A stretch of 64,000 nt of DNA from a bacterium (lineage in GTDB: Bacteria; Patescibacteriota; Minisyncoccia; Phycocordibacterales; Phycocordibacteraceae), in assembly GCA_023269085.1 (NCBI GenBank), contig JAHFML010000003.1, positions 52,863-116,862 of the forward strand, read 5' to 3'. This document shows positions 434 to 59,297 of this stretch, in pieces. The translations under genes were made by a program, and so were the position numbers. The notes beneath the pieces were generated by a model. It did not search any database, was not told the DNA's origin, and worked only from the letters and a program-made list of their open reading frames with translations. Each line of letters starts with the position of its first letter. Position 1 is the first letter of the stretch.

Positions 434-730
434 ATGCAACCGACGATTCAAGAAATTGCAGAGAAGGCGAAGCCCGTATTCGAGAAGTACGGCATCTCGT
501 ATGCTGCGCTCTATGGGAGCATTGCGCGCGGTGAAGCGCGCCCAGATAGCGATGCTGATCTGCTTGTCGAGTATGACCGTCCGCTTGGGTTTGAATATTT
601 CGATATGCGCCGCGAGCTTGAAGAGGGTCTCGGCCGGCCGGTCGACATCATCACCGACGCGAGCATGAACAAGTTTTTGCGTCCGTACATCGTTCCCGAC
701 CTCACCCCCATCTATGGAGAAAAGCGATAG
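434..730 (+). CDS. mnt: Minimal nucleotidyltransferase (MNT) antitoxin of a HepT/MNT pair
   Basis: GS...ARGEARPDSDADLLV nucleotidyltransferase motif; overlaps the downstream HepT gene by 17 nt. Confidence 0.85.
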   Translation: MQPTIQEIAEKAKPVFEKYGISYAALYGSIARGEARPDSDADLLVEYDRPLGFEYFDMRRELEEGLGRPVDIITDASMNKFLRPYIVPDLTPIYGEKR

Positions 731-1064
731 TCCGTACCTCGCGCAGATTGCGGAGAATGTCACGAAGATACGAGCCTTTGTCGGCGACGAAGACTTTGAC
801 GCGTTCCTCGCGGACGGGAAGACGCAGAGCGCCGTCTTGATGCAGCTCCAGCAGATCGGCGAGCTCGCGAAGCGTGTTTCGCCGCAAGCGCAAGCGGAGA
901 CGCCATCGGTGCCGTGGCGCGATGTCACTGACTTTCGCAATGTGGTGGCGCATGAATATTATTCGGTGCAGTTGCCGGTCGTGTGGGAAATCATCACCGA
1001 TCAGCTCGCGCCGCTTGAAGTCGCTTGTGTTGAATATCTGAAAGCCCACCCGATACCGGAGTAG
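714..1064 (+). CDS. hepT: HepT (DUF86) RNase toxin
   Basis: C-terminal R-x4-H-x-Y motif (FRNVVAHEY); translationally coupled to MNT. Confidence 0.85.
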   Translation: MEKSDSPYLAQIAENVTKIRAFVGDEDFDAFLADGKTQSAVLMQLQQIGELAKRVSPQAQAETPSVPWRDVTDFRNVVAHEYYSVQLPVVWEIITDQLAPLEVACVEYLKAHPIPE

Positions 1065-8592: not shown

Positions 8593-8946
8593 TCAAGGGG
8601 TTGGTAATTCTGCAAGGCATTGCTTCACACCTGTTTTGAACGGTGGCAAATCGTTCTGGATAGTATCCCACACCGCATGGATATCGACCTCGGGATACTC
8701 GTGAATGAGGAAGTCGCGCATTGCCGCGGCCGGCTTCCAGTCGATATTGGGGTACGCCTCGCGCACCGCGTCAGGGATACGCTTGACCGCTTCGCCGATA
8801 ATCTCGAGATTGCGCACGACCGCATCTTGCGTCTTCCCATCTGCGCCAAATGCCTCTGCCGACATGTCGATGGTGTACGACTCGATGCTCGTGATTGCAC
8901 CGATTATATCTGCTAGGTAGAGACGGATGTCGCGCGGAGCGGTCAT
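8593..8946 (-). CDS. hepT: HepT (DUF86) RNase toxin, second copy
   Basis: MTAPRDIRLYLADIIGAI...RDFLIHEY R-x4-H-x-Y motif; 4-nt overlap with upstream MNT. Confidence 0.85.
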   Translation of the reverse strand: MTAPRDIRLYLADIIGAITSIESYTIDMSAEAFGADGKTQDAVVRNLEIIGEAVKRIPDAVREAYPNIDWKPAAAMRDFLIHEYPEVDIHAVWDTIQNDLPPFKTGVKQCLAELPTP

Positions 8947-9221
8947 AGGATGGCGACTTCGTCTTTGAGGATGCGCTCGCGCAGGGCTGGTTTGATGGTG
9001 TCGTAGGCGATAAGGTCGACATTCTTCCCGAGTGTCGCTTCGAGCTCCTGTTTGAGCGTAAGGAACGAGAATAGTCCGTAAGGGCGCTTCATCTCGACGA
9101 GCAGATCGACATCGCGTGCAAACGGCTCGCCGCGCGCGACCGAACCGAACACTCCAGCGCGCGTTACCGCACGCCGCTTCAGTATTGGCGTCACTTTTTC
9201 TCGTACCTCTGCTATTTCCAT
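8943..9221 (-). CDS. mnt: MNT nucleotidyltransferase antitoxin, second copy
   Basis: GVFGSVARGEPFARDVDLLV nucleotidyltransferase motif. Confidence 0.85.
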   Translation of the reverse strand: MEIAEVREKVTPILKRRAVTRAGVFGSVARGEPFARDVDLLVEMKRPYGLFSFLTLKQELEATLGKNVDLIAYDTIKPALRERILKDEVAIL

Positions 9222-9275
9222 ACCTGAGAATCATACCATATTTTTGCGTGGCCGCCCCTTTAGGGTCGGCCGTGT

Positions 9276-9330
9276 CGTGCTACAGTACCTTCATGCTTAA
9301 ACTCACATCATTCGGCGGGGCGGGGAAGGT
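9276..9330 (+). repeat. Direct repeat DR-R (partner of 8513..8568); contains the start codon of the beta-CASP RNase gene
   Basis: see DR-L. Confidence 0.8.
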
Positions 9331-10741
9331 GACGGGCTCTAACTTTTTGATCGAAGGCGTACAGGCTAAAACCGCCGAAGGCGGTTCGCCCGACGCGGCA
9401 CAGAGTGCCGCGTTTAGGGGCAAGATGCTCGTCGACTGCGGTATGGAGCAGGGGGGCGACTTCGCGGTCGCCGAGATCTATGCGCCCTTCGCCTATGATG
9501 CCGCTTCTATCGACGCGCTCGTCGTGACGCACGCGCACCTCGATCATGTCGGGCGTATCCCCAAGCTTGTGCGGGAAGGGTTCAAAGGGAAAATATATAT
9601 GACTCCGCCGACCAAGGATCTCGCGCTCCTCATCCTTCACGATTCCATTAACATCTTGCGCGAAGAAGCGATGCGCCTCGGCAGGGCGCCCTTGTATGAA
9701 GCCGAGGATGTCGAGCGCGCGACCGCACTCATCGAAACGCTCGACTATCATATTGAGAAAGAAGTGGCGCCGGGCCTCTCGGTCTATTATCGCAACACGG
9801 GGCACATCCTCGGCGCGGCGAGCGTGCGCATCACGGATGAAGAGGGCACCGTGCTCGTGCTCACGGGCGACATCGGCAACTCGCCCTCGCCGCTCCTGCC
9901 CGACTGGGAGCCGGTCCCGGGCGCCGATGCGCTCCTCATGGAGAGTGTGTATGGCGACCGGCTCCACCCGGCGCACGCTGATCGCGTCGCGCGCTTGCGC
10001 GAGGCGCTCAAGCGCGCGATAGCGAAGGGCGGCACCATTCTTATCCCATCCTTCTCGATAGAACGCACCCAGCTCATGCTCTATGAGCTCTCCAACTTCT
10101 TCTCGGCGAGCGAGCTCCCGCCGGTGCCCGTCTTCCTCGATTCGCCGCTCGCTATCCATGTGACCGAGGTGTATGAGAAGTATGGCGCGACCTACTTCAA
10201 GAGCGAGGCCGAAGAGGAGATGAAGCGCGAGAAGAGCCTTTTCGAGTTCCCCTTCTTACAGAAGACGCTCGCACCAGAGGACTCGGCCGCGATAGCGAAG
10301 GTGCCGAGCCCGAAGATTATCATCGCGGGCGCGGGCATGAGCCATGGCGGCCGCATCGGCCGCTGGGAGGCGCGCTACTTGCCCGACCCAACCACGACGC
10401 TTCTCATCGTCGGCTACCAAGCCCCCGGCTCGCCGGGCAGGCGCATGGCCGACGGCGCACCGACGGTGCGCCTCGGCGGGCAGACGATTCACAATAGAGC
10501 GACCGTCGAGATTCTCGAGGGTTGGTCGGCGCATGCTGATCGCGACGAGCTTTTGAAATTTGCCGAAGAGGCACTCACCGACAAAAATAAAAAACTCAAG
10601 ACCATCTTCGTCGCGCTCGGCGAGCCTTCGGCCGAACGGTTCCTCGCCCAGCGCATCCATGACTACCTCGGCGCGACCGCCATAGTCCCCGAGCCCGCCG
10701 AGACATGGGAGATCTCGAAGGATGAGGTGAAGAGGGTGTGA
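9293..10741 (+). CDS. MBL-fold beta-CASP family ribonuclease (RNase J/CPSF-like)
   Basis: MLKLTSFGGAGKVTGSNFLIEG...VVTHAHLDHVGRIPKL (HxHxDH); beta-CASP C-terminal motifs; start placed at the internal Met matching the duplicated fragment. Confidence 0.75.
   Translation: MLKLTSFGGAGKVTGSNFLIEGVQAKTAEGGSPDAAQSAAFRGKMLVDCGMEQGGDFAVAEIYAPFAYDAASIDALVVTHAHLDHVGRIPKLVREGFKGKIYMTPPTKDLALLILHDSINILREEAMRLGRAPLYEAEDVERATALIETLDYHIEKEVAPGLSVYYRNTGHILGAASVRITDEEGTVLVLTGDIGNSPSPLLPDWEPVPGADALLMESVYGDRLHPAHADRVARLREALKRAIAKGGTILIPSFSIERTQLMLYELSNFFSASELPPVPVFLDSPLAIHVTEVYEKYGATYFKSEAEEEMKREKSLFEFPFLQKTLAPEDSAAIAKVPSPKIIIAGAGMSHGGRIGRWEARYLPDPTTTLLIVGYQAPGSPGRRMADGAPTVRLGGQTIHNRATVEILEGWSAHADRDELLKFAEEALTDKNKKLKTIFVALGEPSAERFLAQRIHDYLGATAIVPEPAETWEISKDEVKRV
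9366..9418 (+). repeat. In-frame ~53-nt palindromic insertion element (TIR ctaaaac...gtttag, two hairpins), copy 1
   Basis: ctaaaaccgccgaaggcggttcgcccgacgcggcacagagtgccgcgtttagg; ~80% identical to 56629..56678 in gatC. Confidence 0.75.
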
Positions 10742-17654: not shown

Positions 17655-17754
17655 TTTGTGCATATCTGGTTTGCACGAGTGCGCTGGGGGCTTGCTTTTT
17701 TGCATAATGTGTGCTAGTCTAAAACCTAGATAGAACCTTGCCATTACGCACGTT

Positions 17755-17813
17755 CGCCACAGCAGAAAGGGGCTTTCGCCAGTCGGCAGGCTCGGCCGTT
17801 TTCTGCTGTGGCG
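17755..17813 (+). promoter_or_regulatory. Conserved 5' leader stem-loop of DGR-1 target gene (paralogue at 54000..54058)
   Basis: cgccacagcagaaa...tttctgctgtggcg 14-bp stem with an inner hairpin; ~85% identical to the copy upstream of the second DGR target, with compensatory changes in the inner stem. Confidence 0.7.
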
Positions 17814-17887
17814 AACCGAATATGTCGGTGCGTCGTACAGCACGCGACAATATCAGCAATGATAGTCGCACAAAAGGAGATCGCATC

Positions 17888-18604
17888 ATGTTGACCGACT
17901 CTCGCACCATCGCTCAAGCATACGGTCTTGGGCAAAAAGTTTTCTCCGCCGGCGAGGTTGCCGGTATGACGCCAGAGCTTTGGAATGCTCTGGCTCAAGA
18001 CGCGCGATTGTTTGCGCAGCTTCCGGCGATGATCCGCGGCTCTTTGGCGGATGCGTTGGCTGAACAGCGCGAACAGCAACCCAAGTTCTTCACTCACATC
18101 GCGACGACCAACCTTGCCGCGACTGTGGGCAAAAAGACGAGGAAGTGTTTCGTTGGCAGTCGCTATACGTATCGCGACAACGACTTCGACAACTGGCTTC
18201 CCGCCAATCAGCCATCCGCCGATGCCTGCGTTATCACAACGCTTGCTTCTGAGCAGGACTGGACGTTTGCCGAAGCCGCTGCCAAAGTCCTAGGTGTTGG
18301 CGCTGGCACGAACATCATCTTGCTCGGCAAAGCGCTCATCGAGAACGGTCATATCATGACCTTGGCGCAAGCTGAAGAAATGATCGAAGCCAACGAGCAC
18401 GGCGAGAACACCGGTATGCACCGCGATGGTCGGGGCAATTTCTTCTTCGTGGAAACGGAGGACGAAAATAATCCCGTCTCGGTTGGCGGCGTCGGTCGCG
18501 TTGAGCGCGCTTGGGTCGCGTACGTCGGCTGGCTCGTCAGCGGCGATCGCTGGGACGCTGGCGGTCGGCTCCTCGTCCGCAACTTGGACGCTTCGAAACT
18601 CTGA
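17888..18604 (+). CDS. DGR-1 target protein with C-terminal variable region
   Basis: SD AAAGGAGA 7 nt upstream of ATG 17888; C-terminal 36 codons form the VR. Confidence 0.75.
   Translation: MLTDSRTIAQAYGLGQKVFSAGEVAGMTPELWNALAQDARLFAQLPAMIRGSLADALAEQREQQPKFFTHIATTNLAATVGKKTRKCFVGSRYTYRDNDFDNWLPANQPSADACVITTLASEQDWTFAEAAAKVLGVGAGTNIILLGKALIENGHIMTLAQAEEMIEANEHGENTGMHRDGRGNFFFVETEDENNPVSVGGVGRVERAWVAYVGWLVSGDRWDAGGRLLVRNLDASKL
18475..18583 (+). repeat. DGR-1 variable repeat (VR)
   Basis: 109 nt aligning to the TR at 18863..18971; ~20 mismatches, 19 at TR adenines. Confidence 0.9.
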
Positions 18605-18862
18605 CACTTGGTCTCTTTCGAGTGTCCTCTAATTACTCCTCTCACGTATTACGCGTGCGAGGAGTATACTTTTGTCTGAACACGCTGGCATCTTCGGTTC
18701 CCAAACTTGAGGTGGCGAGGTTCCGGGTAAGTTCACCCGAAAAAAGAAATATAAGTTGGTGTGTCGCGCTGGTGGGCTCACGGCCCCGAATAAGATACAG
18801 CTCAGAGAGCATTCGATGGGTGGTAACCTTCGCTGGTGGTAAGGATGGTGCGACACACAAAG

Positions 18863-18971
18863 CGTCTCGGTTGGCAACGTCAATCGCGATGAGCGCGATT
18901 GGAACGCGAACGTCAACCGGCTCGACAACGACAATCGCTGGAACGCTGACAATCGGCTCCTCGTCCGCAAC
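18863..18971 (+). repeat. DGR-1 template repeat (TR)
   Basis: Intergenic; rich in AAC/AAT/GAC codons in the VR frame; all but one difference from the VR are at adenines. Confidence 0.9.
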
Positions 18972-18976
18972 AGATC

Positions 18977-19336
18977 TTACTTTCTCTCGCTTTCTGCGGG
19001 AGTTTTCTTTTCAAGATATGAACGCCATGCGACCAGCATTTTGCTTGCATCAACAAGTAGTCCGCTTATACGTACATGTTGAGCGTTCGTAATCGCATTA
19101 CTCTCCCACCCGACAAGTAGAAGGAATTTCGCCACATCGAGTCGGGCAATTGAGATGTTGAGCGCAGAAATCTTTTGCGCGGACGGAAGATATGCCGCAG
19201 AAAAGGCAGATTCAAGCGTGTCGAGAAGAGCCGTGTCAATTCTCGTACCGATAGTCTGTCGCTTCGTTTTGGCAACGTGAGGGAGTGCTGCTTGCCAAGC
19301 GAGATACGCCTCCTTCAATTTCGATACTACGGGCAC
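18977..19336 (-). CDS. avd: Accessory variability determinant (Avd) homologue, DGR-1
   Basis: 119-aa four-helix-bundle-type protein; resembles Bordetella phage Avd; homologous to the 55141..55509 ORF; GTG start. Confidence 0.7.
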   Translation of the reverse strand: MPVVSKLKEAYLAWQAALPHVAKTKRQTIGTRIDTALLDTLESAFSAAYLPSAQKISALNISIARLDVAKFLLLVGWESNAITNAQHVRISGLLVDASKMLVAWRSYLEKKTPAESERK

Positions 19337-19361
19337 GAGCTTTTCTTGTTGCGGAAACGTC

Positions 19362-19373
19362 GGGGGGGGGGGG
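19362..19373 (+). repeat. Homopolymeric G12 tract in the 50-nt divergent avd/RT intergenic region
   Basis: cgtcGGGGGGGGGGGGtacgttcagaagaATG; lies 14 nt upstream of the RT ATG and 26 nt upstream of the avd start. Confidence 0.95.
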
Positions 19374-19386
19374 TACGTTCAGAAGA

Positions 19387-20409
19387 ATGGATAGAATAAA
19401 TATCACTCATTCCTTCGACAATATCACCTTGGTAGATAATTTGCTCGACGCGTGGAAAGAATTCTTGCGCGGCAAACAGAAGAGGAAAGACGTGCAAGTA
19501 TTCGGATATAATCTAATTGAAAATATAAAAAGCATCCACGCGGACCTCATTTCCGGCATCTACCAGCACGGCCAGTACGAGCACTTCAAAATCAACGACC
19601 CAAAGCCCCGCGACATCCACAAAGCGAGCGTGCGCGACCGGCTCGTGCACCATGCCATTTATCGCATTCTCTACCCATTCTTCGATCGCACTTTTATCAG
19701 CGACTCCTACTCCTGCCGCAATGGGAAGGGGACGCACAAAGCCATGAATCGCTTTAGAGCCTTTGCGCGCAAAGTATCGAAGAATGACACGCGCACTGCT
19801 TGGGTCTTGAAGTGCGACATACGCAAGTTCTTCGCATCGATTGATCAGCCAACGCTCCTCGCCCTCTTGAGAGAACGCATTTCAGACGAACGCACCCTGC
19901 TACTCCTGCAACGAGTTATCGAGAGCTTCTCAAGTACAGCGAGAGGGAAAGGCCTCCCGCTCGGCAATCTCACCTCACAGCTCCTCGTGAACATCTACAT
20001 GAACGAGTCCGATCAATTCGTGAAGCATATACTCAAAGCGAAATACTATATCCGCTATGCCGATGACTTCGTATTCATCTCCCACGATCGCAGAGAACTC
20101 GAGGCGCTTCTGCCTCGTGTCGATGCCTTTTTGCGCGACCGGCTCAAGCTCGAATTGCACCCGAATAAAGTCTCAATCGCCACGCTCGCTTCGGGTATCG
20201 ACTTCTTGGGCTGGGTGCATTTCTCTGACCATCGCGTCTTGCGAGGCGCGACGAAGCGACGGATGTTGCGGAGGATTGAAGAGACGAGCGACAAGCCGGA
20301 GGTGATGAGCTCGTATCTGGGGATGCTAGAGCATGGAAATGGGTACAAGTTGCGAGAAGAGATTATGTATTTGCATACACTCACCGAGGCGCGTACCATG
20401 GTGGCATGA
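19387..20409 (+). CDS. DGR-type reverse transcriptase, DGR-1
   Basis: RT motifs including YADD and the DGR-characteristic LGNLTSQ (motif 4, in place of the group II QGxxxSP); start could alternatively be the upstream in-frame ATG at 19285. Confidence 0.9.
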   Translation: MDRINITHSFDNITLVDNLLDAWKEFLRGKQKRKDVQVFGYNLIENIKSIHADLISGIYQHGQYEHFKINDPKPRDIHKASVRDRLVHHAIYRILYPFFDRTFISDSYSCRNGKGTHKAMNRFRAFARKVSKNDTRTAWVLKCDIRKFFASIDQPTLLALLRERISDERTLLLLQRVIESFSSTARGKGLPLGNLTSQLLVNIYMNESDQFVKHILKAKYYIRYADDFVFISHDRRELEALLPRVDAFLRDRLKLELHPNKVSIATLASGIDFLGWVHFSDHRVLRGATKRRMLRRIEETSDKPEVMSSYLGMLEHGNGYKLREEIMYLHTLTEARTMVA

Positions 20410-24462: not shown

Positions 24463-25299
24463 ATGTTAGCAGTATCGAAATTCAGAACGACCGTGTGGCG
24501 CTACTACCGAGAGCAGGGGCGGCATGATTTGCCGTGGAGGAAGACGCAGGATTTGTATCACATTCTCGTTTCTGAAGTGATGTTGCAACAGACGCAGGTA
24601 CATCGGGTACTCCCGATGTATGCCGAGTTCACGAAGCGTTTCCCGACGGCGCGGCGGCTTGCCGCCGCGCCGCTCTCTGAAGTGCTCAAAGTGTGGCAAG
24701 GGCTCGGCTACAATCGCCGCGCGAAAATGTTGCACCAAGCGGCGAAGGAAATTGAAGCACGCCCGACAAGGTTCGACCTTGAGGATTCGGATGTAAGGTC
24801 GAACCTTGTCGGGCGGCTCGAGGCGTTGCCCGGGGTGGGGCACTACACCGCGCGAGCCGTCGCGGCCTTCGCCTACAACGAAGACACCATCGTCATTGAG
24901 ACGAATATTCGCACGGCGGTTATCCATCACTTTTTTGCCGAGAGAACCGACAAAGTCTCGGATGCGGAAATTACTGAAGTACTCGCGCGCGCCCTGCCGC
25001 GAGGCGGGGCGCGCGACTGGTACAGCGCGCTCATGGACTATGGCGCGCACTTAAAGCAGATCGGCATCTCGCACAATGCCCGCACACAGGCGTCGGCGAA
25101 GCAGTCGAAGTTCGCGGGTTCGCTCAGGCAAGCGCGCGGGGCTCTCTTGCGAGAGCTCGCGCGCGGCGCGCAGAGCGCGCCGCATCTCCGCAACCTTTTG
25201 GGCGTCGACCGGCGCGACCAGGTGAACGCCGCTCTCAACGCGCTCCTCACCGAAGGCTTTCTGCAAAAAGAAAAAGGGAAGTATCGCCTTGCCGGCTAA
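24463..25299 (+). CDS. HhH-GPD DNA glycosylase (MutY/Nth-like) with C-terminal winged-helix-like domain
   Basis: LVSEVMLQQTQVHRVLPMY...LPGVGHYTARAVAAFAY HhH-GPD; no obvious 4Fe-4S Cys cluster. Confidence 0.7.
   Translation: MLAVSKFRTTVWRYYREQGRHDLPWRKTQDLYHILVSEVMLQQTQVHRVLPMYAEFTKRFPTARRLAAAPLSEVLKVWQGLGYNRRAKMLHQAAKEIEARPTRFDLEDSDVRSNLVGRLEALPGVGHYTARAVAAFAYNEDTIVIETNIRTAVIHHFFAERTDKVSDAEITEVLARALPRGGARDWYSALMDYGAHLKQIGISHNARTQASAKQSKFAGSLRQARGALLRELARGAQSAPHLRNLLGVDRRDQVNAALNALLTEGFLQKEKGKYRLAG
24762..24813 (+). repeat. In-frame perfect palindrome (19-bp arms, 14-nt spacer) inside the glycosylase gene
   Basis: cccgacaaggttcgacctt gaggattcggatgt aaggtcgaaccttgtcggg. Confidence 0.9.
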
Positions 25300-36556: not shown

Positions 36557-36991
36557 ATGGAACCAACCACGGAAGTAAAACCGAAAGCGACTAAAACTTC
36601 CTCAGGAAGTTCGTCCGACACTTCGCGAAGCGAAGTGTCTAGGAAGCGTGTTTCGAAGAAGGTCGCGGCCGTCGCTCCGGTAGTCGAGCACAAGCTCCGG
36701 ATCCGGGTTCGCGCCTATGAGCACAAGATTCTCGATCTCTCGGTGAAGCAGATCATGGACACAGCGGCGCGTTTCGACGCGGTGATCGTGGGCCCTGTCC
36801 CGCTCCCGACCGAGATCAAGCGTTGGACAGTGAACCGCTCGACCTTCGTCCACAAGGACGCGCGCGAGCAGTTCGAGATGCGCATCCATAAGCGCCTCAT
36901 CGACATCCGGAACCCGTCGCCGAAGGTGATCGAGGCCCTCACGAACCTCAATCTCCCCTCCGGTGTGACGATTGATGTGAAGATGGTGTAG
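36557..36991 (+). CDS. rpsJ: 30S ribosomal protein S10 with ~42-aa Lys/Ser-rich N-terminal extension
   Basis: ...HKLRIRVRAYEHKILDLSVKQIMDTAARFDAVIVGPVPLPTEIKRWTVNRSTFVHKDAREQFEMRIHKRLIDI. Confidence 0.9.
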   Translation: MEPTTEVKPKATKTSSGSSSDTSRSEVSRKRVSKKVAAVAPVVEHKLRIRVRAYEHKILDLSVKQIMDTAARFDAVIVGPVPLPTEIKRWTVNRSTFVHKDAREQFEMRIHKRLIDIRNPSPKVIEALTNLNLPSGVTIDVKMV

Positions 36992-53999: not shown

Positions 54000-54058
54000 C
54001 GCCACAGCAGAAAGGGGCTTCCGCCAACCGGCGGACTAGGCCGTTTTCTGCTGTGGCG
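54000..54058 (+). promoter_or_regulatory. Conserved 5' leader stem-loop of DGR-2 target gene
   Basis: cgccacagcagaaa...tttctgctgtggcg; paralogue of 17755..17813. Confidence 0.7.
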
Positions 54059-54120
54059 AACCGAATAGGTACGCTTGAACAGCACTGTAAAAACGCTCTT
54101 CCCAAGCCAAGGAGAAAGTC

Positions 54121-54714
54121 ATGAGCGCACAACAGAAGCAAATCACGAAACTAGTGGCCGCTCTGGTCGAGTTTTCTGACCAGTTCGGCCAGATGTCGAC
54201 CGAGGATTGCCAATGGGCAATCCAAAACACGAAAGCGGCAATCGGCCTCTTCGTAGAGGCGGTGAGGAATCGCCCGATAGCAGCTCTGGTCGGGTTGCCA
54301 GAAGGCACGGTCATCCGTCGCGTGAAGGTCGACCGCTCGCATTCTCCGCAGAAAATGGTGAACGCGACCGGCCGTAGGCAGTACATCGACAAGGACATCC
54401 TCGCGACGATGCCTTTGGGCGAAGGCGACGAGGTGGATGTGTACTTCGTACCGACCAAGCGCTTCGTTTTGGCAAGTGAGGTCTCGGCGTTTCTCGCGCA
54501 GTATGGTCTCGTTCCCGACCCGCGCGCGCAAACGGCGGTGAACGAAGCCGATCCGACCTTCGCCGACGACCATCCGAACGGAACGCAATGGAGCGATTTT
54601 TGCTACCTGACGTTCTACCGCTGGTATGACGAGCGGGACGTGTACTGCAACCGCGACGACCGCGTCTGGCGCGGCTATTGGTTCCTCTCGGGTGTCCCGA
54701 CTCCCCGCAAGTAA
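54121..54714 (+). CDS. DGR-2 target protein with C-terminal variable region
   Basis: SD AAGGAGA 5 nt upstream; VR occupies the last ~36 codons (…CYLTFYRWYDERDVYCNRDDRVWRGYWFLSGVPTPRK). Confidence 0.75.
   Translation: MSAQQKQITKLVAALVEFSDQFGQMSTEDCQWAIQNTKAAIGLFVEAVRNRPIAALVGLPEGTVIRRVKVDRSHSPQKMVNATGRRQYIDKDILATMPLGEGDEVDVYFVPTKRFVLASEVSAFLAQYGLVPDPRAQTAVNEADPTFADDHPNGTQWSDFCYLTFYRWYDERDVYCNRDDRVWRGYWFLSGVPTPRK
54601..54707 (+). repeat. DGR-2 variable repeat (VR)
   Basis: 107 nt aligning to 55025..55131; ~14 mismatches, all at TR adenines. Confidence 0.9.
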
Positions 54715-54763
54715 GTCCTCGGGTCTTTGAGTATAAGAACTCTTTAGACCCTTAACCCTTTGT

Positions 54764-54792
54764 GCGCCGCTTTCCCAAGCGGCGCATTTTGT
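54764..54792 (+). terminator. Rho-independent terminator after DGR-2 target
   Basis: gcgccgc tttcccaa gcggcgc + attttgt. Confidence 0.7.
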
Positions 54793-55024
54793 ATATGATG
54801 CAAATGGTAGTAGGCGAATACGGAAGCGATTACGGTTTCTTCCTGCCGAATCCAGTATCCGTACGTTGAGAACGTGTGCGATTACGGTTGCATATGGAGG
54901 ATGTACGCAGAAACTTCAAAAAATGAAGATACTTGGTGTGAAGTGCTGGCGCATTACCGATGCCGAATACGATTCAACCTTGAGAATACTCGATGGGTGG
55001 TGGCACAGATGGCGCTCCATACAT

Positions 55025-55131
55025 TGCTACCTGACGTTCAACCGCTGGAATGACGAGCGGAACGTGAACTGCAACCGCAACGACAACGACTGGAACGACA
55101 ATTGGTTCCTCTCGGGTGTCCCGACTCCCCG
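55025..55131 (+). repeat. DGR-2 template repeat (TR)
   Basis: AAC-rich in VR frame (…NRWNDERNVNCNRNDNDWNDNWF…); intergenic. Confidence 0.9.
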
Positions 55132-55140
55132 TAACTCTCT

Positions 55141-55509
55141 TCATTTCTCGCCCGAACCTCTATGTTCGGGCGAGTTTTGTTTAACGAGCTGCCCATTCCA
55201 TCCACCAAGCATTCTCCCGACCTCCTCAAGTGGCATCGAGAGAGCGATGTATTTCTTCGTATCGAGCGATTTGGTCTCCCAGAGGATGAGTAAGAATATT
55301 TTTAGCGTATCGAGTTTACGAATAGCGAGACGCACCCACGGCTGTTTCTCAGTTTTTGAGAGAAAGCTTGCACTTGCGACTGCTTCAATCAACGCAACGA
55401 ATTCCGCGTCAACTGTTCCACCGAGCGTGTGCCGATGGGTCTTCGGTATGGTTTGATAAAATCCATACCATATAATATACGCATGCTTAATACGCTCGAG
55501 CACCGGCAA
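55141..55509 (-). CDS. avd: Avd homologue, DGR-2
   Basis: 122 aa; ...LSMPLEEVGRMLGGWNGQLVKQ resembles the Avd C-terminus; TTG start. Confidence 0.7.
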   Translation of the reverse strand: MPVLERIKHAYIIWYGFYQTIPKTHRHTLGGTVDAEFVALIEAVASASFLSKTEKQPWVRLAIRKLDTLKIFLLILWETKSLDTKKYIALSMPLEEVGRMLGGWNGQLVKQNSPEHRGSGEK

Positions 55510-55516
55510 GAGCCTC

Positions 55517-55526
55517 GGGGGGGGGG
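55517..55526 (+). repeat. Homopolymeric G10 tract between divergent avd-2 and RT-2
   Basis: agcctcGGGGGGGGGGagcttcgaag; 8 nt upstream of avd-2 start. Confidence 0.95.
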
Positions 55527-55606
55527 AGCTTCGAAGAATCGAATTCGTTCATACCTATGAGCATATCATCTCGATCGAGAACCTTCTCGACGCGTGGCGA
55601 GAATTC

Positions 55607-56542
55607 GTGAGAGGGAAGAAGAAGCGTGCGGATGTGCAAGAGTTCGAGAGAGACTTGATGCAAAATGTCATATCGTTGCATCGTTATCTCGTGTCTGGCG
55701 CGTACCAGCACGGCCAGTACGAGCGCTTCAAAATCAACGACCCCAAGCCTCGCGACATCCACAAAGCGAGCGTGCGCGATCGGCTCGTGCACCATGCCAT
55801 CTATCGCATTCTATATCCATTCTTCGACCGCACTTTCATCAGCGACTCCTATTCCTGCCGCAATGGGAAGGGAACGCACAGAGCCATGAATCGCTTTAGA
55901 GCCTTTGCGCGCAAAGTATCGAAGAATGACACGCGCACTGCTTGGGTCTTGAAGTGCGACATACGCAAGTTCTTCGCCTCGATTGATCAGTCAACGCTCC
56001 TCGTCATCTTGAAGAGACGCATAACAGACGAACGCACGCTGACACTTCTGCAACGAGTTATCGAGAGCTTCCGCACACCCTGTGCAACACCTGGTGTTGC
56101 ACAAAAAGGCCTCCCGCTTGGCAACCTTACCTCACAACTCCTCGTGAACATCTACATGAACGAGTTCGATCAATTCGTGAAGCACGCGCTCAAAGCAAGA
56201 TACTATCTCCGCTATGCCGATGACTTCGTATTCATCTCTCACGACCGCAGAGAGCTCGAGGCGCTTCTGCCTCGGGTCGATGCCTTTTTGCGCGACCGGC
56301 TCAAGCTCGAACTGCATCCAGACAAAGTCTCAATCGCCACGCTCGCTTCGGGTATCGACTTCTTGGGCTGGGTGCATTTCTCTGACCATCGCGTTGTGCG
56401 AGGCGCGACGAAGCGGCGGATGTTGCGGAGGATTGAAGAGATGGGTGGCAAGCCAGAGGTGGTGAGCTCGTATCTGGGGATGCTCTCGCACGGGAACGCG
56501 TACCGGCTTGTTGCTCATATTTCAGAACAGAAGGAAAAGTGA
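55607..56542 (+). CDS. DGR-type reverse transcriptase, DGR-2
   Basis: ~85% identical to RT-1; YADD and LGNLTSQ motifs; no ATG equivalent to RT-1 Met1 (ATG->ATC), so the true N-terminus is unclear. Confidence 0.85.
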   Translation: MRGKKKRADVQEFERDLMQNVISLHRYLVSGAYQHGQYERFKINDPKPRDIHKASVRDRLVHHAIYRILYPFFDRTFISDSYSCRNGKGTHRAMNRFRAFARKVSKNDTRTAWVLKCDIRKFFASIDQSTLLVILKRRITDERTLTLLQRVIESFRTPCATPGVAQKGLPLGNLTSQLLVNIYMNEFDQFVKHALKARYYLRYADDFVFISHDRRELEALLPRVDAFLRDRLKLELHPDKVSIATLASGIDFLGWVHFSDHRVVRGATKRRMLRRIEEMGGKPEVVSSYLGMLSHGNAYRLVAHISEQKEK

Positions 56543-56555
56543 TACAGTAGAAACC

Positions 56556-56900
56556 ATGGCGACTACAGAGGAGGTGAAGAAGCTCGCGGCCTTGGCGCGG
56601 ATTACCATTGCCGACGAAGAACTCACGACTAAAACCGCCCAAGGCGGTTCGTCCGACGCCGCAGAAGCGGCGTTTAGGAAGTTTACGAGTGAGTTTGACG
56701 CTATCTTGGCGTATGTCGGCCAGCTCGAGGAGCTCGAGTTGCCCGAGGGCTTGGTGGGAGAGAAGCCGGCCTTGCGGAACATCTTTCGTGATGACGCAGA
56801 GCCGTATCCCGCGCGCACCTTTACCGAAAAGATTACAGCGCAATTTCCGGCACGTTCGGGCGACGCGCTCTTGGTGAAGCAAATCATTTCTCATGAATAA
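56556..56900 (+). CDS. gatC: Glu/Asp-tRNA amidotransferase subunit C
   Basis: MATTEEVKKLAALARITIADEEL...ILAYVGQLEELEL...ALRNIFRDD; carries an in-frame 50-nt element. Confidence 0.85.
   Translation: MATTEEVKKLAALARITIADEELTTKTAQGGSSDAAEAAFRKFTSEFDAILAYVGQLEELELPEGLVGEKPALRNIFRDDAEPYPARTFTEKITAQFPARSGDALLVKQIISHE
56629..56678 (+). repeat. In-frame ~50-nt palindromic insertion element, copy 2 (in gatC)
   Basis: ctaaaaccgcccaaggcggttcgtccgacgccgcagaagcggcgtttagg; encodes TKTAQGGSSDAAEAAFR. Confidence 0.75.
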
Positions 56901-59007: not shown

Positions 59008-59297
59008 GCGGGGTAGAGGAGAGGTACCTCGGGAGGCTTGAGTTATTCGGGCGTGCGCGCGAGCAATTGCGCGTAAGATCATCTGTCAAATTCGGCGAAC
59101 CCCTCTCGCGAAAACGAAAGGCAACACCGAGCCAAGCTTTGCGAATAATCGCAAGGAAGGTGTAGAGACTAGACGGCAGACATCCTGAGCGTAGTCGAAG
59201 GATGAAGGCATAGTCCAGACCACAAACGAAAGGCAATGAAAATTGTAGTGGTAAGCATAACCTCCAGACCCTGGTTCGATTCCAGGCCCCGCAACAA
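59008..59297 (+). ncRNA. ssrA: Candidate tmRNA-like RNA (tRNA-like T-arm plus acceptor-like 3' end); identity uncertain
   Basis: 3' end ...CCTGG-TTCGATT-CCAGG-CCCCGCA-A mimics T-arm plus acceptor strand; complementary GCGGGG ~285 nt upstream; 410-nt ORF-free interval; followed by a strong terminator; tag ORF not confidently identified. Confidence 0.4.

Follow-up and report, generated by a model that had tools for sequence, protein, structure and literature searches.

A family of short palindromic repeats, probably mobile and often in frame within genes, in Patescibacteria

The window, i.e. the whole 64-kb stretch of DNA analysed here, contains three copies of a short palindromic repeat: one in the gene of a beta-CASP metallo-beta-lactamase RNase, one in rpsJ and one in gatC. 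All three lie on the + strand and are read in the same frame. The sequence-only reading had described the first of them (9366-9418) as a palindromic element inserted in-frame in the RNase gene, and the DNA there is as described. The relative it named in gatC (56629-56678) is equally real. A 23-nt core CTAAAACCGCCNAAGGCGGTTCG, common to copies 1 and 2, occurs exactly twice in the window and in none of 100 shuffles. Its count of two was short by one, the third copy being located in rpsJ at 36591-36642. A covariance model run with filters off finds these three copies in the window and no other. The features are as follows.

9293..10741, + strand: host gene 1, beta-CASP metallo-beta-lactamase RNase, 482 aa
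9364..9419, + strand: copy 1, within host gene 1; 80.4 bits; encodes AKTAEGGSPDAAQSAAFR
9366-9417, + strand: core of copy 1, CTAAAAC..GTTTAG (52 nt); GG at 9364-9365, repeated at 9418-9419
9370-9386, + strand: hairpin 1 of copy 1
9384-9394, + strand: central linker of copy 1, GTTCG-C-CCGAC, with N' = C at 9389
9395-9411, + strand: hairpin 2 of copy 1
36557..36991, + strand: host gene 3, ribosomal protein S10 (rpsJ); the element lies in its N-terminal extension (~45 residues)
36589..36644, + strand: copy 3, within the rpsJ extension; 70.7 bits; encodes TKTSSGSSSDTSRSEVSR
36591-36642, + strand: core of copy 3 (52 nt); GA at 36589-36590, repeated at 36643-36644
36595-36611, + strand: hairpin 1 of copy 3 (AACTTCC/GGAAGTT)
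36614, + strand: N' = T of copy 3; its hairpin 2 at 36620-36636
56556..56900, + strand: host gene 2, gatC
56627..56679, + strand: copy 2, within gatC; 65.5 bits; encodes TKTAQGGSSDAAEAAFR
56629-56677, + strand: core of copy 2 (49 nt); GA at 56627-56628, repeated at 56678-56679
56633-56649, + strand: hairpin 1 of copy 2; N' = T at 56652; hairpin 2 at 56658-56671

A weak model match at 24737-24818 does not belong to the family; the repeat there is another one, inverted and perfect over 21 bp, and present once only.

The consensus reads GN, then CTAAAAC-hairpin 1-GTTCG-N'-CCGAC-hairpin 2-GTYTAG, then GN. The core has 52 nt and is flanked on each side by the dinucleotide GN; a filled site is thus longer than an empty one by 54 nt (18 codons). 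Both hairpins of the window's copies are present as had been proposed, with folding z-scores of -3.4 to -5.2 against shuffles. The proposed terminal inverted repeat CTAAA/TTTAG holds as sequence; as a base-paired stem it is not supported, its fourth pair being mismatched (A.C) in 18 of the 44 copies. We rejected a three-way junction closed by this stem and prefer an extended hairpin 2; the variable base of the putative closing stem has the G of GAC as its partner in every case, in a G-U or a G-C pair. Core lengths of 43, 46, 49, 52, 55, 58 or 82 nt, all of the form 3n+1, account for 47 of 55 copies; the eight exceptions lie mostly between genes or at gene ends, and within ORFs the length varies in 3-nt steps only.

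Compensatory substitutions between copies, first seen in two sequences, are statistically confirmed for both hairpins. Paired cells make up 96% of the total compared with 77% in shuffles, cells with a double change number 135 compared with 30, and none of 500 shuffles attains the observed values. Hairpin 1 of rpsJ, for example, is fully compensated (AACTTCC/GGAAGTT for AACCGCC/GGCGGTT), and copies outside the search pattern carry compensatory changes even at the pairs which that pattern holds fixed (AAATC..GATCG, GAT..ATT, GGC..GCT). On the reverse strand the covariance model still scores 16-24 bits; the whole element is therefore a quasi-palindrome, i.e. an inverted dimer, in which unit 1 on the top strand (GGCTAAAAC-hairpin-GTTCGCCC) resembles unit 2 on the bottom strand (CCCTAAAC-hairpin-GTCGGGCG).

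An exact-pattern scan combined with the covariance model yielded 55 further copies in 43 loci of 33 Patescibacteria assemblies. Together with the window's three this makes 58 copies, spread over 25 or more unrelated genes, with identical unpaired motifs throughout. About 48 of the 58 lie within ORFs. The host genes, whose identities were confirmed by Pfam, include those for ArgRS, GyrA, DnaK, FtsK, UvrD, NusA, KsgA, TrmD, PheS, RecR, ribosomal proteins and others as well as a MutY-like gene; beyond housekeeping they have no common functional theme. In KsgA the same loop is occupied in three genomes, by two antisense copies and one sense copy, and one UvrD gene carries a copy in each orientation. 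Tandem pairs occur as well, one inside an ORF with a tRNA-binding domain and one between genes.

Another 21 loci from the genome scan, almost all outside CPR (Pirellula, Bradyrhizobium, Clostridia and others), have no hairpins and were discarded as chance matches, of which, by our own estimate, tens are expected for 17 fixed bases in ~1.2e12 positions. The single match in viral contigs also lacks hairpins and was treated likewise. A metagenome scan for linkers with a base other than C at N' gave 22 matches, and the only true copies among them (L082 and L084/L086) are all of type G-T-G, which left the sample for the covariation of flank and centre no larger. No Rfam family matched the whole window at gathering thresholds, nor did any match the region of the element when E values of up to 10 were allowed.

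Homologues of the beta-CASP RNase were said to have none of the extra residues. This holds for 102 of the 120 closest ones (at least 70% identity), in which the empty site reads GSNFLxEG-xRG-KxLVDCG; the alignment to the structure of the T. thermophilus RNase TTHA0252 begins only just after the insert. Filled sites are found in at least eight lineages, each with empty nearest neighbours, and at two insertion points three codons apart. At the DNA level, the empty allele GGGAAGG^TGCTC (L065) corresponds to GGGAAGG[CTAAAAC..GTCTAG]GGTGCTC in the filled one (L007): as in a target-site duplication, GN stands on both sides of the element and once at the empty site. In L068, whose DNA is ~92% identical to L007 over the positions aligned here, precisely 54 nt are absent. 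In gatC, presence and absence are reciprocal at two sites, the L054 orthologue having no insert where the window has one and carrying its own copy elsewhere. Most orthologues of each host gene examined are without the element, and degenerate remnants occupy the same beta-CASP loop in P0047, P0089 and P0093. Length differences inside 90% protein clusters were not counted as polymorphism; they look like alternative start calls instead. Such comparisons do not separate gain from precise loss. Judging by an allele without the copy in ~92% identical DNA, the family appears to have been active recently.

What does an insertion do to the host protein? In the RNase it adds 18 residues, within the 17-19 first estimated; they lie between the first two strands of the metallo-beta-lactamase fold and not, as supposed, before the first. 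The AlphaFold model (mean pLDDT 84 overall) predicts a low-confidence coil at about residues 24-40, where pLDDT stays under 50, with strand 18-23 before it and strand 41-47 after it. In this one host, then, the predicted loop is compatible with the fold. The comparison of gatC with solved structures gave no match. In rpsJ the element must be translated, since no start codon in the same frame follows it before the conserved S10 core is reached.

The RNase and gatC copies do share one reading frame (xCT AAA ACx), as had been noticed, and about 37 of the roughly 50 copies within ORFs use the frame that gives the peptide AKTAEGGSPD...(F/S)R. As a general rule the observation fails: copies are read in two sense frames (F2 and F0) and in two antisense frames, and others are intergenic. 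The three other frames yield the unrelated peptides LKPxxxVRPT..GLG, PLNAPxxGASGE..VLAE and FPKRGEG... Two of the six combinations of frame and orientation contain a TAA stop, and 46% of AAGG occurrences in the window's genes are in the sense phase that gives the common frame. The one-frame bias is thus largely explained by a purine-rich target (AAG^G) together with those stops, and after the AAGG count we set it aside as a sign of selection on the peptide. Given that antisense, tandem and intergenic copies exist, besides those read in other frames, the repeat is an element of DNA and not a protein module.

The base at the centre of the element is linked to the bases outside it. Triplets of base -1, N' and base +2 are GCG in 45 copies, ATA in 6, GTG in 2 and CGC and ACG in one each, and the covariation of the flanks with N' is significant in Fisher tests (p = 7e-6 and 1e-6). 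L002 and L057 occupy the same trmD site and have a unique hairpin 1 in common, yet one is ATA and the other GCG. On the top strand, G.T pairs exceed A.C pairs by 45 to 10. The covariation suggests that integration may be directed by base pairing. For 43 of the 58 copies the element's top strand has a positive local GC skew; the skew bears on strand-specific insertion into the lagging-strand template, as in IS200/IS605 elements, but the figure is confounded by gene orientation.

We consider it likely that the repeats are mobile DNA: a Patescibacteria family of short palindromic elements that are non-autonomous and in which, as in a REP dimer (BIME), two similar hairpin units form an inverted dimer. 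Empty homologues and further copies both support the in-frame insertion, resembling that of Rickettsia palindromic elements (RPEs), which had been read from the window. In the mechanism we propose, insertion into an ORF would never shift the frame because the gain of 54 nt is a multiple of three. Insertions in the two combinations with TAA would be lost, and the survivors would be those in loops, linkers or termini of intact, often essential proteins, where they would be translated as a flexible peptide. Propagation may depend on the hairpins, formed by the top strand in a single-stranded state, and the dinucleotide at the flanks might be chosen or retained through pairing with the central N', by a logic like that of the HUH tyrosine transposases of IS200/IS605 and REP/RAYT, where an internal guide reads cleavage and target sites. 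A putative mobilising enzyme would act in trans. The window encodes no transposase, a Pfam scan of its 20 unassigned ORFs gave no transposase domain, and tblastn with E. coli RayT found no match in ~570 kb of CPR DNA. A search for split halves flanking cargo, or for separated left and right halves, found none. A more specific version of the proposal remains speculative, and we would sooner doubt than expect it: that this is a minimal mobile DNA whose central N' specifies both junction dinucleotides, whose joined-ends form (..GTYTAG-GN-CTAAAAC..) would let the junction GGNC form 4 bp with the centre GN'CC, and which is moved as ssDNA by an HUH-type or other CPR enzyme, or that, alternatively or additionally, the two-hairpin structure is kept by host-level selection in mRNAs of essential genes.

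That last thought leads to a different explanation, in which the repeat is a structured nucleic-acid signal in coding regions, beneficial to the host and kept by host selection, with mobility only its mode of spread; it could be a DNA site for a factor of the nucleoid, of replication or of recombination, or an mRNA element which an RNase or RNA-binding protein recognises. The strong covariation in both hairpins and between flanks and centre speaks for such a signal, and compensated changes are seen within lineages that clearly descend from one insertion, as in the long hairpin 2 of DnaK (GCGTC/GACGC to GCGCC/GGCGC), in hairpin 1 of GyrA (CGCC/GGCG to CGGC/GCCG) and in the triple change at the trmD site. 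The top strand tolerates pairs of the G.U type, and the hairpin loops are GAA or AAA in mRNA sense, antisense copies included. Copies at the same site are moreover 74-93% alike while their coding flanks are 53-80% alike, which could reflect host-level selection on structure and not pure selfishness; it could equally come from ascertainment by the search pattern, re-insertion at hot spots or template-switch correction of quasi-palindromes, and given the first two, selection in situ is suggested by these comparisons but not safely so. The unpaired motifs CTAAAAC, GTTCGCCCGAC and GTYTAGG are kept across many assemblies, but for the 17 fixed bases the search pattern itself accounts for part of this conservation. 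Template switching in quasi-palindromes can re-symmetrise the arms of a DNA hairpin with no selection needed. With five or more copies running antisense to the host gene and others intergenic, no single transcript-level role fits all of them; the predominance of orthologues without the element, the decayed remnants in the beta-CASP loop, the thematically mixed hosts and the lack of an Rfam match speak against it too. On balance we find a host-serving signal unlikely.

Far less probable still is that the peptide AKTAEGGSPD..FR is itself under selection, be it for linking, for being modified or for interacting with a partner, with the palindromy incidental. The prevailing frame does give a small, polar, Gly/Ser-rich peptide, predicted to be disordered, but the same DNA is also read as three unrelated peptides, antisense use contradicts a protein-level role, compensatory changes in the stems alter residues freely (TAEGG to TSSGS, for instance), non-3n copies lie between genes and the target preference reproduces the bias. 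We give just as little credence to an ancestral or locally evolved sequence whose likeness between genes stems from convergence or from gene conversion between unrelated loci. Several genomes do have copies at the same site; the scattering of filled lineages among empty nearest neighbours, the clean 54-nt indel and the empty homologues nevertheless refute this reading, and so many copies with the same unpaired motifs in unrelated genes, where chance predicts zero in the window, are equally at odds with it.

CPR bacteria have tiny genomes, and few mobile elements are known from them. If the mobile family is what we take it to be, 18 extra residues have been written repeatedly into essential proteins such as aminoacyl-tRNA synthetases, gyrase, DnaK, FtsK, UvrD and ribosomal proteins. 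This would account for one class of CPR protein insertions and extensions that so far had no explanation, and the covariance model can be used for masking them. Selfish DNA inside genes, mostly associated with Rickettsia, would extend to a second lineage with a reduced genome and dependence on other organisms, which makes it possible to test whether tolerance of in-frame repeats goes with genome reduction. The covariation of flank and centre offers a falsifiable handle on how REP- or RPE-like repeats with no known transposase choose their sites, and the presence or absence of copies could provide strain-level markers in metagenomes.

Among known systems, IS200/IS605 elements come to mind for their architecture, as the CPR element likewise has hairpins near both ends and no long terminal inverted repeats. 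Its flank and end sequence may be set by pairing with an internal base, much like guide and cleavage site; G.T pairs are tolerated on one strand, and presence and absence are clean enough to be compatible with precise excision. IS608 TnpA reportedly uses a separate guide 5' of each hairpin, whereas here a single central base serves both flanks. The specified site also differs (2 nt, GN, instead of 4-5 nt), and no Y1 HUH transposase was detected among the window ORFs by Pfam or by the RayT search of ~570 kb.

MITEs are similarly non-autonomous and numerous, with a terminal inverted sequence (here the short CTAAAAC / GTYTAG) and a short flanking direct repeat. They usually measure 70-300 bp, have terminal inverted repeats of 15-30 bp and possess a related autonomous IS (PMC3733652, PMC10969869). 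The CPR core of 52 nt with its 6-7 nt terminal sequence falls below both ranges, and no parent insertion sequence was found; covariation with an internal base also shows that the direct repeat at its flanks is no free target sequence.

REPs and BIMEs are closer. They are built from hairpins of 20-30 nt to which short unpaired tags and tails are attached, they occur mostly as inverted dimers and their stems vary between copies by compensated changes, all of which applies to the CPR element, where palindromic units within the 20-40 bp customary for REPs form an inverted dimer. Intragenic REP dimers encoding 20-30 residues have already been described in other phyla (Di Nocera et al. 2013, PMC3733652), often in replication and repair genes such as uvrA and uvrB (PMC3733652); UvrD, GyrA, FtsK, RecR and the MutY-like gene are comparable hosts here, and CGTC REPs likewise have no known transposase (PMC3733652). 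The tags, however, are CGAC/CGAAC and CTAAA(A)C, not the GTAG or CGTC of REPs (PMC3733652), the stems are shorter, the loops have 3 nt, and the two units overlap in the centre. REPs are predominantly extragenic whereas CPR copies are mostly intragenic, Patescibacteria are not among the phyla reported for REPs (PMC3733652), and RAYT had no match in the CPR DNA searched.

RPEs are short palindromic multi-copy repeats, in-frame in housekeeping genes (Ogata et al. 2000, via PMC10969869, PMC3733652). Like them, the CPR element is present in many copies per genome, lies in-frame in intact, unrelated genes of known function whose orthologues are without it, adds a peptide that in the RNase model is compatible with the fold, occurs between genes too and has no known transposase. 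The hosts differ (Rickettsiales versus Patescibacteria), as does the size, ~100-150 bp for the RPE-1 type (PMC10969869) versus a 52-nt core or 18 codons; the two-hairpin inverted-dimer architecture with its own conserved motifs, and a 2-nt flanking repeat that covaries with an internal base, are further distinctions of the CPR element. As the comparison was made by description, we call the element RPE-like and do not file it as an RPE. The sequence-only reading had held that such elements are not described for CPR-like genomes, and we indeed found no literature report of one in CPR bacteria; its kind as such is known, from RPEs and from intragenic REP dimers (PMC3733652). What is new is the host phylum, the compact size of 18 codons and the flanking dinucleotide that covaries with a base inside the element.

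On inspection, the related sequences at 9366-9418 and 56629-56678 both match their description in the sequence-only reading. The window contains their common 23-nt core at exactly two places (0 of 100 shuffles), and a repeat search of the window exposed a third copy of the element. Only these three match the gapped pattern CTAAAAC-N11-GTTCGNCCGAC there (shuffle mean 0.16 matches), and a covariance model run over the whole window with filters off returned no copies beyond them. All three are on the + strand, within + strand ORFs, in the frame xCT AAA ACx (F2, giving an AKTAEGGSPD-like peptide):

9366-9418, + strand, element copy in the beta-CASP RNase gene, encoding AKTAEGGSPDAAQSAAFR
36591-36642, + strand, element copy in the N-terminal extension of rpsJ, encoding TKTSSGSSSDTSRSEVSR
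56629-56678, + strand, element copy in gatC, encoding TKTAQGGSSDAAEAAFR

The rpsJ copy must be translated, because no in-frame start codon can be read between it and the conserved S10 core. Its hairpin 1 is AACTTCC/GGAAGTT in place of AACCGCC/GGCGGTT, with full compensation in the stem and altered residues.

Sequence comparison indicates that the element is an insertion, and one that has moved recently. The extra residues of the RNase had been proposed to be absent from homologues and not ancestral, and this holds: the empty site GSNFLxEG-xRG-KxLVDCG is present in 102 of the 120 closest beta-CASP homologues (>=70% identity), and scan locus L068 lacks exactly 54 nt relative to L007, with ~92% identity over the aligned positions of the region. 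Intact inserts occur in 8 representatives and shorter, degenerate ones in 3; the T. thermophilus RNase TTHA0252 is alignable only from just downstream of the insert. At the DNA level, the syntenic loci L065 and L066 read GGGAAGG^TGCTC and the filled L007 reads GGGAAGG[CTAAAAC...GTCTAG]GGTGCTC, a net gain of 54 nt made up of the 52-nt core and a repeated GG. Zero element copies were found in L065 and L066 across 2 x 21 kb. In gatC, presence and absence are reciprocal: the L054 orthologue is without the window's copy and has one at another site.

In the beta-CASP loop the element has entered at two points, EGxx^GK and EGRRGK^VL, separated by three codons. The nearest neighbours of every filled lineage are empty proteins, at up to 93% identity, which implies that this single loop has repeatedly gained the element, or lost it precisely. 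Inserts of 7-11 residues in the element's loop of homologues P0047/P0156, P0089 and P0093 (LPAATDAAQEGEH, AGGGSASGGE and DLPTGQAGA) may be decayed copies. Toxin-antitoxin pairs of HepT/MNT type (nucleotidyltransferase + HEPN) lie at window 434-1064 and 8593-9234 and at 9303-9931 of L065/L066; one is directly upstream of the RNase gene, a synteny conserved in relatives.

One genome per species was scanned with the exact pattern, giving 64 loci, 43 of which, from 33 assemblies, carry the element. The complete-element pattern is matched by 41 of these; L031 and L059, with imperfect hairpin 1, were added by the covariance model, which was built from 44 copies. The assemblies are labelled Patescibacteria, Paceibacterota, Parcubacteria, Kaiser-, Adler- or Colwellbacteria, Saccharibacteria, or just 'bacterium'. 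The other 21 loci, nearly all outside the candidate phyla radiation (CPR), are without hairpins and were treated as chance matches, since by our own estimate 17 fixed bases should yield tens of them at this scale. The further copies on which the sequence-only reading had made its case depend do exist: beside the third in the window, the covariance model finds 55 more distinct copies in the CPR scan loci, some of which hold several in 8 kb (L001, L047 and L052, for instance, have three apiece). The host genes include the following:

Confirmed by Pfam: ArgRS, FtsK (two copies), GyrA, NusA, KsgA, DnaK, TypA/BipA, PheS, TrmD (two copies), UvrD
Identified by eye: RecR, FolD, TatD, SodA, MutY-like glycosylase, S16, L21, L22, L23, tRNA-binding-domain protein

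The expectation of one shared reading frame is borne out by all three window copies and by most in-ORF copies, which use F2, but it is no rule. Frame F0 is used in PheS, at the 3' end of TrmD and by a tandem pair in the tRNA-binding protein, and antisense frames in UvrD (two genomes), BipA, KsgA (two genomes) and the MutY-like gene. One UvrD gene holds a sense and an antisense copy, the same KsgA loop is occupied in three genomes in both orientations, and L040 has a tandem pair between genes. This makes it a DNA-level element and no protein module. Read directly, the consensus has TAA in one sense and one antisense frame, leaving four open; the left flank is purine-rich, (A/C)(A/C)GG, and 46% of AAGG occurrences in the window's own genes are in the sense phase giving F2. 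Target preference and stop avoidance thus largely account for the shared frame. Core length is 43, 46, 49, 52, 55, 58 or 82 nt in 47 of 55 copies (all 3n+1; 3n with flank), and most of the eight others lie between genes or at gene ends; length evidently varies freely, with only 3n versions retained in ORFs. AlphaFold models the RNase with mean pLDDT 84 and pTM 0.88; in the model the insert, at about residues 24-40, is coil between strands 18-23 and 41-47, with pLDDT < 50 at residues 27-39. An intein (Pfam Intein_splicing and Hint) is present in the UvrD of L047 as well.

The layout of the element is GN + CTAAAAC-[hairpin 1, 3-nt loop]-GTTCG-N'-CCGAC-[hairpin 2, variable]-GTYTAG + GN, N' being the central base. 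Its two-hairpin structure is strongly supported: 96% of alignment cells are paired (77% in shuffles) and 135 are double changes (30 in shuffles), values reached by 0 of 500 shuffles, and slid controls are only 26-45% paired. Copies not meeting the search pattern are compensated even at pattern-fixed pairs (AAATC..GATCG twice, GAT..ATT, GGC..GCT). Thermodynamic folds also give both internal hairpins proposed earlier (z = -3.4 to -5.2). The proposed terminal repeat CTAAA/TTTAG is present as inverted sequence, but as a stem it is broken by an A.C mismatch in 18 of the 44 copies; the same variable base is in every copy paired with the G of GAC, and hairpin 2 therefore extends outward instead. The reverse strand scores 16-24 bits with the covariance model, and the top strand of unit 1 (GGCTAAAAC[hp]GTTCGCCC) is similar to the bottom strand of unit 2 (CCCTAAAC[hp]GTCGGGCG), which makes the element an inverted dimer of two similar hairpin units overlapping centrally. 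The 82-nt core, antisense in UvrD (L047 4643-4737, - strand), bears an extra nested hairpin of ~30 nt in the hairpin 2 loop and is still 3n+1.

Base -1, N' and base +2 (the second after TAG) covary (Fisher p 7e-6 and 1e-6). Of the triplets, 45 are G-C-G, 6 A-T-A, 1 C-G-C and 2 G-T-G (wobble), with one exception; the flanking dinucleotide thus forms a direct repeat and, in addition, complements an internal base. L002 and L057, whose copies occupy one and the same trmD site and share a unique hairpin 1, nevertheless have A-T-A and G-C-G, respectively. Joined ends, ..GTYTAG-GN-CTAAAAC.., are observed in tandem copies; if ends were joined, GGNC at the junction would form 4 bp with GN'CC at the centre. 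The top strand has 45 G.T pairs against 10 A.C pairs. We infer that pairing with the element selects or preserves the flank. Flanks specified by pairing are the logic of the HUH transposases of IS200/IS605 and REP/RAYT, although the IS608 geometry differs from that of the present element. Pfam showed no transposase domain among the 20 unassigned ORFs of the window, a RayT query had no match in ~570 kb of CPR DNA, and split element halves were not seen. The covariation of flank and centre is a specific, testable clue to the mobilising mechanism.

Could the structure be selected in place, for a host function? Same-site copies across genomes are 74-93% identical, against 53-80% for coding flanks, and compensated stem changes within lineages clearly sharing one insertion (DnaK, GyrA, beta-CASP type 2, trmD) would fit such selection. 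However, the copies were ascertained by a pattern fixing 17 bases, similar elements strike the same loops repeatedly, and template switching can re-symmetrise short DNA palindromes with no need of selection. Degenerate remnants in the same beta-CASP loop, copies that are antisense or intergenic, and the empty site of most orthologues all speak for a mainly selfish element. A host function is considered unlikely.

The window holds other features, among them two diversity-generating retroelement cassettes:

54121-56542 and 17738-20409, retroelement cassettes
55607-56542 and 19285-20409, reverse transcriptase ORFs (Pfam RVT_1; segments 92-94% identical between them)
55141-55509, - strand, bAvd accessory gene
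~55024-55134, template repeat
54600-54710, variable repeat at the 3' end of ORF 54121-54714
18475-18583 and 18863-18971, second repeat pair
17755-17825 and 54000-54070, conserved hairpin
59030-59235, + strand, group I intron (Rfam, 56 bits, E = 1.4e-11)

All mismatches between the template and variable repeats at 55024-55134 and 54600-54710 are at template adenines. The intron flanks (~59008-59295) look like two tRNA halves, GCGGGGTAGAGG... and ...GGTTCGATTCCAGGCCCCGCA; ARAGORN found no tRNA in the whole 64 kb. A perfect 21-bp inverted repeat at 24760-24815 (CGCCCGACAAGGTTCGACCTT / AAGGTCGAACCTTGTCGGGCG, 14-nt loop) is in-frame in the MutY/EndoIII-like ORF 24463-25299 and encodes ARPTRFDLEDSDVRSNLVGR; the corresponding stretch of the L031 orthologue is shorter and unrelated. 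The window has one copy of this repeat and the scan loci examined have none; it may represent a second type of intragenic palindrome. The palindrome GGGTGGACAC(T/C)AGGTGTCCACCC has four apparently intergenic copies (~26495, 27231, 31282, 52253) and is either a separate repeat family or a shared terminator.

Full-text literature searches gave no paper tying such repeats to CPR or Patescibacteria, and no Rfam family matches the element. The closest described kin are Rickettsia palindromic elements (RPEs) and intragenic REPs and REP dimers (PMC3733652). In the description of Di Nocera et al., REP dimers consist of tagged hairpins in inverted arrangement; where they are intragenic, REPs and their dimers encode 20-30 residues, often in genes for replication and repair, and no transposase is known for the CGTC class, to which RPE-4 and RPE-6 belong (PMC3733652). 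The present copies are mostly intragenic, unlike REPs, which are predominantly extragenic. REP families carry the tags GTAG or CGTC, whereas the present element has CGAC/CGAAC and CTAAAAC and falls outside them by tag; RPE-1-type elements and MITEs are larger. The RPE-like interpretation offered from the start agrees with many copies, in-frame in unrelated genes, at sites empty in relatives. Taken together, the evidence supports an RPE-like repeat in a phylum without earlier reports of such repeats.
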